Below are positions 36,119 to 38,372 of a DNA stretch of 64,000 bases, piece after piece. The notes beneath the pieces are model-generated. The model saw only the letters and a list, made by a program, of their open reading frames with translations, made no database searches and was not told the DNA's origin. The DNA comes from Alphaproteobacteria bacterium (GTDB lineage Bacteria; Pseudomonadota; Alphaproteobacteria; Micavibrionales; UBA2020): contig JBGGMV010000037.1 in NCBI GenBank assembly GCA_041287865.1, positions 4,614 through 68,613 of the forward strand, given 5' to 3'. How positions within the stretch are numbered: the stretch's first letter is position 1; every line of letters begins with the position of its first letter. Position numbers and translations under genes: made by a program.

Positions 36119-36226
36119 TTGGCACCTTTTCTGCCGGGAGACTAGCCGATTTAAACCCTTGCTGCATCAGGAAAAACAGCCCCCAAGTTGACAGGCGTGC
36201 GATGATACCGCAAACTTGTCTTACCA

Positions 36227-36934
36227 ATGGAAAAACCCAAGCGAAAGCGATCGCTTACAAGGAAATTCACCATGGCCGTGCTGGGCCTGACGGCCACGGC
36301 AGCCTGCCTTTACGGCGCATGGTTCGGGGCCTTCTATGCCGGACGCGGCGATACGCTGACGCCAAGCGAGACATCCGCCGTCACCTCCATCTTCGGCGAT
36401 GAAATCAACGCCAATGCGATCCGCAAGCACGAACGCTCCGAGGCCAGCGCGACGCATCTTTTCCGCTGGGTCGACGGCATGGTGCCGCCGCCCTTCAGCC
36501 ATATCGATTTCTTCGGCCCCGATGCGCATGCGCGCGATTACACGCGCGAAGATAAACGGCTTTTCTCGCTGTTTATGCACGAAGTTACGCATGCATGGCA
36601 GGGCCAGAACTTCAACTTCTCGCGCCACAATGTGGGCCAGTATGCCTATAGCCTGAAAGAAGGCTCCAAATTCTCCGACTTCGGCACCGAGCAGCAGGCC
36701 GATATCATCAGCGATTACGCCGGCACCTTCATGCATCAATCCAGCATCGGGAAGGAGCGCAGCCCAGAAGATATATTGTTAAGGGATGTCGTCGAAACCC
36801 GCTTCCCCAGTGCGCGTGACACCCGCCTGTCGATGGAGGCGGGCCGTATGGCCGCCTTCCGCAACGAGGCCCAGCCTGTCCGCGTGGCCCAGCCCACGCC
36901 CACCCCCCCGCCCTCCATCCCCAAAACCGCCTGA
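36227..36934 (+). CDS. Membrane-anchored HExxHxxQ (DUF4157-like zincin motif) protein, paralogue 1
   Basis: 235 aa with an N-terminal TM (FTMAVLGLTATAACLYGAWFGAFYA). Motifs IFGDEINANAIRKH ... IDFFGPDAHARDY ... LFMHEVTHAWQGQN. Confidence 0.7.
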   Translation: MEKPKRKRSLTRKFTMAVLGLTATAACLYGAWFGAFYAGRGDTLTPSETSAVTSIFGDEINANAIRKHERSEASATHLFRWVDGMVPPPFSHIDFFGPDAHARDYTREDKRLFSLFMHEVTHAWQGQNFNFSRHNVGQYAYSLKEGSKFSDFGTEQQADIISDYAGTFMHQSSIGKERSPEDILLRDVVETRFPSARDTRLSMEAGRMAAFRNEAQPVRVAQPTPTPPPSIPKTA

Positions 36935-37037
36935 CCCCCCCTTTTCGGCCCCCTATCCGGCCTTTTTTCGACTTAATCGTTGACATTATGAATAATAATT
37001 CGCTATCCTGAAGCCTTCAAAAAACAAGGACGTCCTG

Positions 37038-37691
37038 ATGGCGGAACGCCAGAAGAAATCGTTGATTCGCAAATTTGCGACAGCTGCGGCGAAAACCGTC
37101 GCCGTGGCGGCGCTCGCCTATGGCGCGTGGTTCGGCGCGTTTTACGCAGGCCGCGGCGAGACGCTGACGAAGGGCGAGACGCAGGCGGTCGAAGGCATTT
37201 TCGGCGACCAGCTGGATGCTTCCATGATCCGCAAGCACTTCCGCAACCAGAGCAGCGTCACGCATGTGATGGGCAATACGCGCGGCATGGTGATGCCGCC
37301 CTTCAGCCATATCGACTTCTTCGGGCCCGACGCGCAGTCGAAAGACTACAGCAAAGAAGGCATCGGCAAATTCGGCCTCTTCATGCATGAAGTCACGCAT
37401 ACATGGCAGGGCCAGAACCTGAAATTTTCCACGAAAGCCTTCCGCCGCTACGACTACGATTACATGCTGCGCCCCACGTCGCAGTTCAGGGATTTCGGCA
37501 CGGAACAGCAGGCGGAGATTGTCGAGAATTACGCCGAGCGCTGGATACACCGCGACGGCATCATAGAGCCGCGCACGGCGAAAGACACGCTGGTCATGAA
37601 TGTGGTCGAAAGACAATTCCCGCGCGCAAAGGCAACGCGCGACAGCGTCTGGCGCGCAAACGCGCCAAAAGCGAATACCCTCAAAACCTGA
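37038..37691 (+). CDS. Membrane-anchored HExxHxxQ (DUF4157-like zincin motif) protein, paralogue 2
   Basis: 217 aa, collinear with paralogue 1: IFGDQLDASMIRKH ... IDFFGPDAQSKDY ... LFMHEVTHTWQGQN. Confidence 0.7.
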   Translation: MAERQKKSLIRKFATAAAKTVAVAALAYGAWFGAFYAGRGETLTKGETQAVEGIFGDQLDASMIRKHFRNQSSVTHVMGNTRGMVMPPFSHIDFFGPDAQSKDYSKEGIGKFGLFMHEVTHTWQGQNLKFSTKAFRRYDYDYMLRPTSQFRDFGTEQQAEIVENYAERWIHRDGIIEPRTAKDTLVMNVVERQFPRAKATRDSVWRANAPKANTLKT

Positions 37692-37694
37692 GAA

Positions 37695-38372
37695 TTAATA
37701 GTTCGGCTTAATTTTCTTGACCGGCAGGTCGGCGGCGACGGGTTCGTCGTCGATCATCTCGATCATGCCGTTTTCGGTCATCGAGAAGCGCGCGGAGAAA
37801 AGCGCGTTGCCGTAGAGAACCATGGCCGACGCCTCGTGCGCACCTTCGGCCGAGCGGCCTTCGAAAGCGGCGGGGCGGATCGCGTCCTCGATCACCTTGC
37901 GGGTGTTCGGGTCCAGTTTCGCCTGGTCGATCGCGGGGTGGTTGATGTCTTCCACGATCAGGAAGGGCCCTTCGTCGCCATGGACGAAGTAGCAGAAGAA
38001 ACGCAGGTATTCGAGGTTGTTGGCGTCGGTCACCTTGATCGGATCGGCTTCGTTCGCGTCATGGATGGGAGCAGACGAACCGTCGAGCAGGAACATGCGG
38101 CCCTGTTTGGCCAAAAACCAGAAGGGGCCGGTGCCGGCGGACCAGGCGCTGTCGTTCACGCGCACAAGGCCGATCGAGGTGTAGAAGGGCAGCTGGCACC
38201 ACTCGGCGGTGCCGGTGGCGGCGGAGGCGTTATGCTTGCCCTGGATGGGGTTGACCAGCTTGAGGAAGGGCTCGAGCTGAGCGCCGCTGACCTTTTGCCA
38301 GTTATACTGATCGAACATCGTATTTGGAGCCTTTCCAGAAGGTTGCTGTGCAGCCTGTGTTGATGTTGTCAT
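37695..38372 (-). CDS. Hypothetical protein (225 aa)
   Basis: Intact ORF with normal GC and no overlapping better-supported gene. It is convergent with the HExxH pair, and the stops are 3 nt apart. No family recognised. Confidence 0.55.
   Translation of the reverse strand: MTTSTQAAQQPSGKAPNTMFDQYNWQKVSGAQLEPFLKLVNPIQGKHNASAATGTAEWCQLPFYTSIGLVRVNDSAWSAGTGPFWFLAKQGRMFLLDGSSAPIHDANEADPIKVTDANNLEYLRFFCYFVHGDEGPFLIVEDINHPAIDQAKLDPNTRKVIEDAIRPAAFEGRSAEGAHEASAMVLYGNALFSARFSMTENGMIEMIDDEPVAADLPVKKIKPNY

Follow-up and report, generated by a model that had tools for sequence, protein, structure and literature searches.

The best characterised relative of the proteins considered here is the C-terminal effector domain of VgrG2b from Pseudomonas aeruginosa (VgrG2bC-ter), whose structure (6H56) was solved by Wood et al. 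in 2019 (PMC6899460), and which is a thermolysin-like gluzincin with H935, H939 and E983 as zinc ligands and E936 as the catalytic residue. The domain is toxic in the periplasm only, requires its catalytic glutamate, induces blebbing at the division site and lowers the amounts of membrane-bound MltC, LolB and RcsF (PMC6899460). Wood et al. also noted that homologues in Sphingomonadaceae, where type VI secretion systems (T6SS) are scarce, hint at another role for the domain (PMC6899460). The group also takes in relatives that travel as separate T6SS cargo proteins, among them ACIAD0053 from Acinetobacter baylyi. A second reference point is PF13699 (DUF4157, now called eCIS_core), an HExxH domain of about 80 residues located at the N-termini of polymorphic toxins and of proteins associated with extracellular contractile injection systems (eCIS). 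To our knowledge, the only role recognised so far for zincins resembling VgrG2bC-ter or DUF4157 is that of cargo for contractile injection machines. Here we describe two adjacent genes, A and B, in a 64,000-nucleotide stretch of DNA (the window; contig JBGGMV010000037.1 of assembly GCA_041287865.1, positions 4,614 to 68,613 of the forward strand) from an alphaproteobacterium of the order Micavibrionales, which encode proteins of this fold and whose products are probably exported and held at the membrane.

Gene A (36227-36934, plus strand, 235 amino acids) and gene B (37038-37691, plus strand, 217 amino acids) are separated by a 103-bp spacer, and a first-pass annotation of the region rightly described them as adjacent, collinear open reading frames. 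Their products are paralogues with 54% identity across 201 amino acids (E 3e-74) and an identical layout: the N-terminus is basic, a hydrophobic helix comes next, and the gluzincin domain, which resembles VgrG2bC-ter, is followed by a tail rich in proline. The three motif blocks quoted in that annotation, namely IFGD(E/Q)(I/L)(N/D)A..IRKH, SHIDFFGPDA(H/Q) and LFMHEVTH(A/T)WQGQN, are present in both proteins. Comparison with the orthologues in L009, the most closely related locus, indicates purifying selection, with ratios of nonsynonymous to synonymous substitution (dN/dS) of 0.26 for A and 0.22 for B, and for this reason we consider the plus-strand frames to be real genes and not long antisense shadow frames. 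GC content is even across the locus and native to the genome.

No Pfam or NCBIfam model reaches threshold when the two sequences are scanned singly, and nothing meaningful is returned. A family profile (A1) compared to all PDB sequences, in turn, yields a sole match, 6H56 (6h56_A, E 9.6e-22, the next sequence being at E 0.7), in which profile positions 11-163 align with residues 67-227 of the chain. An AlphaFold2 model of A, built from the family alignment, reached a mean local confidence (pLDDT) of 91.8 and a predicted template modelling score of 0.82, and when this model was submitted to Foldseek, 6h56_A/B were again the sole significant match (E 1.5e-6, probability 1.00, template modelling score 0.60 on the target), all the remaining structures having E > 0.2. 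The zincin similarity that the motifs had suggested is therefore present at the level of both profile and structure, VgrG2b having been compared through the PDB sequence and structure searches. In the hidden Markov model alignment, H935, E936, H939 and E983 of VgrG2b pair with H118, E119, H122 and E155 of A, and all four residues are invariant in the family alignment of 32 sequences, in which A and B stand beside 30 relatives from the databases. Numbered as in A, the invariant columns are F56 G57, R66 K67 H68, H92, D94, D104, H118 E119 T121 H122, Q125, Q127 and E155 Q156 Q157. In gene A, the HEVTH motif (H118-E119-V-T-H122; 36578-36592, plus strand) would thus provide two zinc-binding histidines and the catalytic glutamate, and E155, within GTEQQA (36689-36691, plus strand), is the predicted third zinc ligand, aligned with the residue that plays this part in the VgrG2b crystal. 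The corresponding elements of gene B, assigned through the family alignment, are the catalytic motif HEVTH (H117-E118-V-T-H121; 37386-37400, plus strand) and E156 (37503-37505, plus strand) as predicted third ligand. Judged by profile search and predicted fold, both proteins clearly belong to the VgrG2bC-ter structural family.

The first-pass annotation had likened the layout of these proteins to DUF4157, a comparison that holds as remote homology but not as membership. For a direct comparison, 12 bona fide PF13699 domains were taken from genomes of alphaproteobacteria and aligned with A1 by hhalign; the match had 83.5% probability (E 8.3e-6) over 89 columns and paired the very motifs named in that annotation, FG.D..(I/V)R.H and HExxHxxQ. 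Neither A nor B, however, matches PF13699 at its gathering threshold of 22 bits; only three of the 32 family members match at all (best E 0.12), and in the genome carrying the window the model is hit by four divergent paralogues alone, with sub-threshold scores of 18.7-20.8 bits. Scores were below threshold also for PF20573 (DUF6782, a putative metallopeptidase; threshold 27 bits), with a best E of 0.058 and matches in three of the 32 members, while one paralogue scored 17.2 bits. Size and context differ as well: compared to the roughly 80 residues of PF13699, the domain of A and B spans about 170 and extends to the helix that carries the third zinc ligand, and whereas bona fide PF13699 members in the sampled alphaproteobacteria lie in open frames of 131-1334 amino acids, mostly of at least 360, A and B are proteins of about 220 residues with no extra toxin domain, in a genome with no detected eCIS sheath. 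By profile comparison, then, A and B are DUF4157-like, remote relatives of DUF4157 and not members of it, and the VgrG2bC-ter family is their precise relative. The family to which they belong comprises 408 representative clusters at E<=1e-3 and is outside Pfam and NCBIfam coverage.

The basic N-terminus and single helix reported in the first-pass annotation were found in both proteins. In A, an uncharged stretch of 26 residues (F14-G39; 36266-36343, plus strand), preceded by seven lysines or arginines, is a predicted signal-anchor or export helix, and the AlphaFold2 model places a helix at residues 10-36 with pLDDT of about 93; in B, the uncharged hydrophobic stretch covers 19 residues (T20-G38; 37095-37151, plus strand). 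Hydrophobicity is moderate, with a Kyte-Doolittle maximum over 19 residues of 1.3-1.5 in A and B and of 1.2-2.05 in the family. All 32 members carry 5-8 lysines or arginines ahead of the helix and 1-3 behind it. According to the positive-inside rule, the basic flank of a membrane helix stays in the cytoplasm, and because of this bias the catalytic domain would be expected to lie outside it. An N-terminal hydrophobic segment is also found in 108 of the 150 closest representatives at 50% identity. The similarity to VgrG2bC-ter extends to this feature, its domain too coming after a hydrophobic helix, and a periplasmic site of action is probable for both.

An independent pointer to export and membrane tethering of the stand-alone forms comes from Rhodobacterales, where distant homologues (in Sulfitobacter, Ruegeria, Phaeobacter and Sagittula, among others) carry classic lipoprotein signal peptides (...L[AS][GA]C-GRP) together with conserved cysteines, such residues being frequent in periplasmic proteins. 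These homologues are stand-alone proteins of about 225 amino acids, retain HExTH..WQ and YEQQ, and occupy a conserved core-genome position, as A and B do; they differ in being tethered through a lipid at the lipobox instead of a helix, in sharing only 22-28% identity with A and B, in their conserved cysteines, in being unannotated, and in their neighbourhood. In the Rhodobacterales loci (L036-L088, for example L042:7974-8657, plus strand) the homologue shares a conserved block with parE, with the gene of a small cytochrome c and with lolD/lolCE-like genes. The link to lipoprotein trafficking is suggestive given what has been reported for lipoproteins in the VgrG2b work, but the genomes involved are close kin and we regard it as a lead only. 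Taken with the helix and its charge bias, these data suggest that the stand-alone forms are probably exported and membrane-tethered.

The genomic setting of A and B is unlike that of VgrG2bC-ter. They are not fused to VgrG or PAAR, are not part of a T6SS locus and have ubiH, ihfB and argE for neighbours, and they possess a basic N-terminus and predicted export helix of their own, a core-genome position and no small downstream immunity gene. Close relatives (41-79% identity) all derive from metagenome-assembled genomes labelled as Micavibrio sp. or unclassified Alphaproteobacteria, and in 17 related loci one or two copies occupy the same slot, between lapA-ihfB-ubiH on one side and unk225-argE-FGase-unk437 on the other. 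The position is core-syntenic and vertically inherited, and is not an island. A defence-system or phage origin was rejected, as PADLOC and PHROGs scans were empty. In the window's genome (3.6 Mb, 96.6% complete), searches for TssC (PF05943), Hcp (PF05638) and VgrG/gpD (PF05954), as well as for a phage- or eCIS-type sheath, found none of these components, and TssC was detected in none of 42 genomes of the same taxonomic family. Because no T6SS was found in this bacterium, the fold probably has an envelope role that does not depend on T6SS. No small open reading frame of the PA0261 immunity type follows A or B, and none is conserved in the 17 syntenic loci, PA0261 itself not having been used as query. 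Among the other paralogues of the genome, the only immunity-like neighbour that stood out is a 149-amino acid membrane protein encoded downstream of a 288-amino acid paralogue (C52:8491-9900, minus strand), a possible immunity-type partner for that copy.

On these grounds, we tentatively propose that A and B are periplasmic peptidases tethered to the inner membrane and acting on membrane-proximal envelope proteins of the cell that produces them, an interpretation whose chances we would put a little under even. According to this proposal, both would be Sec-exported gluzincin metallopeptidases that bind zinc through H-E-x-x-H and a downstream glutamate, with the N-terminus in the cytoplasm and the catalytic domain held at the inner membrane on its periplasmic side; that the helix might instead serve as a cleaved signal peptide is a less likely alternative. 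So tethered, they would most probably cleave proteins of the producer's own envelope that lie close to the membrane, and by analogy with VgrG2bC-ter these might be lipoprotein tethers, or peptidoglycan-remodelling or division factors. A and B differ from each other in the loops that separate the conserved motifs, where they have diverged, and would probably act on different substrates. On this view, the pair might serve to remodel the envelope in this particular lineage, instead of being a toxin for injection.

Several of our own observations weigh against this proposal. The family is found in only 56 of 151 genomes of the order, and for this reason it is not an essential envelope function; moreover, its expansion to 12 domains per genome, its repeated duplication, an evolution faster than that of the housekeeping neighbours and the toxic nature of the nearest characterised relative all suit a weapon no less well than a housekeeping enzyme. 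As for the helix, its hydrophobicity in A and B (1.3-1.5) is borderline, and in VgrG2b the matching helix, which is more hydrophobic, is included in the soluble fragment that was crystallised (residues 833-1019), so that it may be an element of the fold and not an anchor. Finally, AxA-like sites (ATA|A in A and ALA|Y in B) would allow for a cleaved signal peptide.

The main rival, although we regard it as somewhat unlikely, is that A and B are weapons directed against prey, Sec-exported and then released to act in the prey periplasm as VgrG2bC-ter does. Release might follow cleavage of the signal peptide or occur through vesicles or a contact zone, possibly with the involvement of a type II system of Micavibrio, and no immunity protein would be needed, either by compartmentation or because the predator lacks the target. 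The antibacterial, periplasm-acting nature of the closest characterised relative speaks for this possibility, and so does the Micavibrio-like lineage of the host, since cultured Micavibrio are epibiotic predators (PMC3189940). Cultured Micavibrio aeruginosavorus is reported to have type I and type II secretion systems and neither type III nor type IV (PMC3189940). The 12 domains of the genome include those of five to six paralogues that lack an export signal and resemble soluble effectors, tandem duplication is recurrent, dN/dS is above that of neighbouring genes, and the family is near-universal in its own taxonomic family (38 of 41 genomes) and sparse in sister families, all of which would be in keeping with a weapon. 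The uncharged stretch of A, however, is long for a cleavable signal peptide at 26 residues and is highly conserved in its C-terminal half (YGAWFGAFYAGRG); the genes are vertically inherited in a core-syntenic position, with no island; the hosts of the lipoprotein homologues are Rhodobacterales that live freely and are not predators, and there the genes lie in a chromosomal block that is just as conserved; and predation by the uncultured Micavibrio-like genus itself is unproven.

Much less probable, in our opinion, is that the proteins are cytoplasmic, the helix being simply the first of the fold, and that they are either cargo of an unrecognised delivery route or cytoplasmic peptidases. The helix of A does align with the hydrophobic stretch at the N-terminal end of 6H56, a chain that was soluble on purification, and the hydropathy of both A and B is under the usual cut-off of 1.6. 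This explanation fits poorly, however, with a charge bias as strong and uniform as the one described above, with the lipoprotein signal peptides of the homologues, and with the way the helix has evolved, in that its N-terminal half varies in sequence while retaining hydrophobicity. Two paralogues encoded elsewhere in the genome, moreover, have a Pro-rich linker of about 50 residues between the hydrophobic segment and the domains, and because of this linker the segment of those proteins cannot belong to the fold, a point that supports export. A similarly improbable idea, according to which A and B have no catalytic or no peptidase activity and use a zincin scaffold for binding (for example as sensor or tether, in line with the loading or trafficking role proposed for DUF4157 in eCIS toxins), can appeal to the fact that direct substrate cleavage was never shown for VgrG2bC-ter (PMC6899460) and to the existence of pseudo-enzyme versions among the two-domain paralogues, whose first domain is degenerate (HEMAQ, NELTR), but none of the four metal-binding and catalytic residues varies among A, B and the 30 other members, and mutation of the equivalent glutamate abolishes VgrG2bC-ter toxicity (PMC6899460).

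The stand-alone, duplicated and, on prediction, helix-anchored layout noted in the first-pass annotation can be accepted as it was given, with the addition that the pair is only a part of a larger expansion, as the genome holds ten genes of the family with 12 domains in total. The ten genes cover a range of forms: four have an N-terminal hydrophobic helix, and in two of these four the product has two domains, the first of them degenerate; one is lipoprotein-like; four lack a clear export signal; and one, on contig C30, is cut by the contig end and misses its N-terminus. The two-domain paralogues (C99:2073-3464, plus strand, and C101:3867-5180, minus strand), which are those with the linker discussed above, consist of a transmembrane helix, the linker, a degenerate domain (HEMAQ and NELTR) and an intact domain (HENTH and HEMTH), and a pseudo-domain followed by an active domain is also the layout of most of 39 two-domain representatives. 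Elsewhere in the genome, two adjacent paralogues with no signal sequence (C130:3649-5166, minus strand) are more similar to VgrG2b (HEM[AT]HVWQ). Within the order, the family is present in all nine genomes of a second taxonomic family and in 6 of 68, 1 of 15 and 0 of 10 genomes of three others.

Regarding the history of the pair, the tree clearly groups A and B each with an orthologue from L009 (support 100/99 and 99/99), and the copies of the L012-L018 lineage are sisters to each other (97/93), the backbone being unresolved. The latter grouping implies a separate duplication, or gene conversion, in that lineage, and a single ancient duplication common to all two-copy loci is for the same reason not supported. 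Gene conversion is kept as an alternative given the conserved promoter-like spacer that precedes the second copy. The names under which these genomes are deposited are of little help here: for L009, L014, L017, L023 and L024 the NCBI taxonomy varies between Bdellovibrionota, Alphaproteobacteria and 'Patescibacteria group', while gene order and protein identities indicate one lineage, and database names for the Micavibrio-like group are therefore unreliable.

Where relatives have one copy only, the place of the second is taken by a membrane-anchored Peptidase_C92 protein (YiiX/YaeF, an NlpC/P60-like amidase), as in L019:6599-7321 (minus strand), L025:2999-3724 (minus strand) and also L020-L024. 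This arrangement recalls one mentioned in a review, where an uncharacterised stand-alone DUF4157 gene of the Rv2189c type lies beside the NlpC/P60 hydrolase gene ripC in mycobacteria (PMC12067865). From its description, the Rv2189c-type protein resembles A and B in being a stand-alone, DUF4157-like HExxH protein with a conserved chromosomal position and no toxin-delivery context, and the sister clade L019-L025 has an A/B orthologue beside a member of the NlpC/P60 superfamily. The window's genome differs in that its Peptidase_C92 gene is on another contig (C72) than A and B. A variable slot downstream of the metallopeptidase is also seen in L010, where a DUF2726 protein (PF10881, E 1e-10; L010:5705-6319, plus strand) is encoded between the metallopeptidase and unk225.

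The first-pass annotation had given each copy a TTGACA-type promoter element of its own, which agrees with our results for gene B and less well with those for gene A. Upstream of B, a promoter-like element (36980-37009, plus strand) is composed of TTGACA (36980-36985), an 18-nucleotide spacer and TATCCT, with 10 of 12 positions matching, and an AAGGA ribosome-binding-like site lies 8 nucleotides ahead of the gene. The element is conserved in L009, and TTGCCA or TTGTTA followed by TATAAT or TATTAT precedes the second copy in L012, L014 and L018; because of this conservation and recurrence, B probably has a promoter of its own. Gene A is preceded, 34 nucleotides upstream, by a TTGACA hexamer (36188-36193, plus strand) that L009 shares but more distant loci do not; it could be a -35 element, but no acceptable -10 hexamer accompanies it and it is absent from the promoter-scan output.

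The 225-amino acid open reading frame that abuts the pair (unk225; 37695-38372, minus strand) is real, convergent with B, and downstream of and co-directional with argE. An association between this gene and the pair, which the first-pass annotation had proposed to look for, did not emerge: unk225 is found in 149 of the 151 genomes of the order, with or without the metallopeptidase and with up to four matches per genome, compared to 56 for the metallopeptidase family, and in five related loci the two are not adjacent but about 8 kb apart. The protein is 80-97% identical among related loci, with dN/dS of 0.04. It has no Pfam match, its profile matches no PDB sequence, and its AlphaFold2 model (pLDDT 76) gives no significant fold match. 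A role as partner or immunity protein was rejected on the grounds that unk225 is an order-wide core gene under strong constraint, has no signal peptide, runs with argE and is not always adjacent to the metallopeptidase; it is an unrelated, highly conserved core protein of cytoplasmic type.

The fold and chemistry of these proteins were already known. What appears to be new is a form that is stand-alone, probably exported and tethered, devoid of an immunity partner, independent of T6SS and core-syntenic, together with its expansion in a Micavibrio-like lineage. In a limited literature search, no description of a stand-alone, tethered and T6SS-independent form was found. The broader proposition that the tethered forms, helix-anchored in Micavibrio-like bacteria and lipid-anchored in Rhodobacterales, are the endogenous version of the VgrG2b toxin fold, envelope proteases that would act at the surface of the inner membrane to trim lipoprotein tethers, division factors or peptidoglycan factors, or alternatively that the expanded family is a contact-dependent weapon with an undescribed delivery in an epibiotic predator devoid of T6SS, is one that we put forward as speculative and, on balance, doubtful. 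If the endogenous version were nonetheless correct, the native substrates of the tethered proteins would reveal the target of the VgrG2bC-ter toxin family. The lipoproteins of Rhodobacterales, which are common marine bacteria, along with cultured Micavibrio, offer tractable and non-toxic entry points to the substrate of this protease fold.

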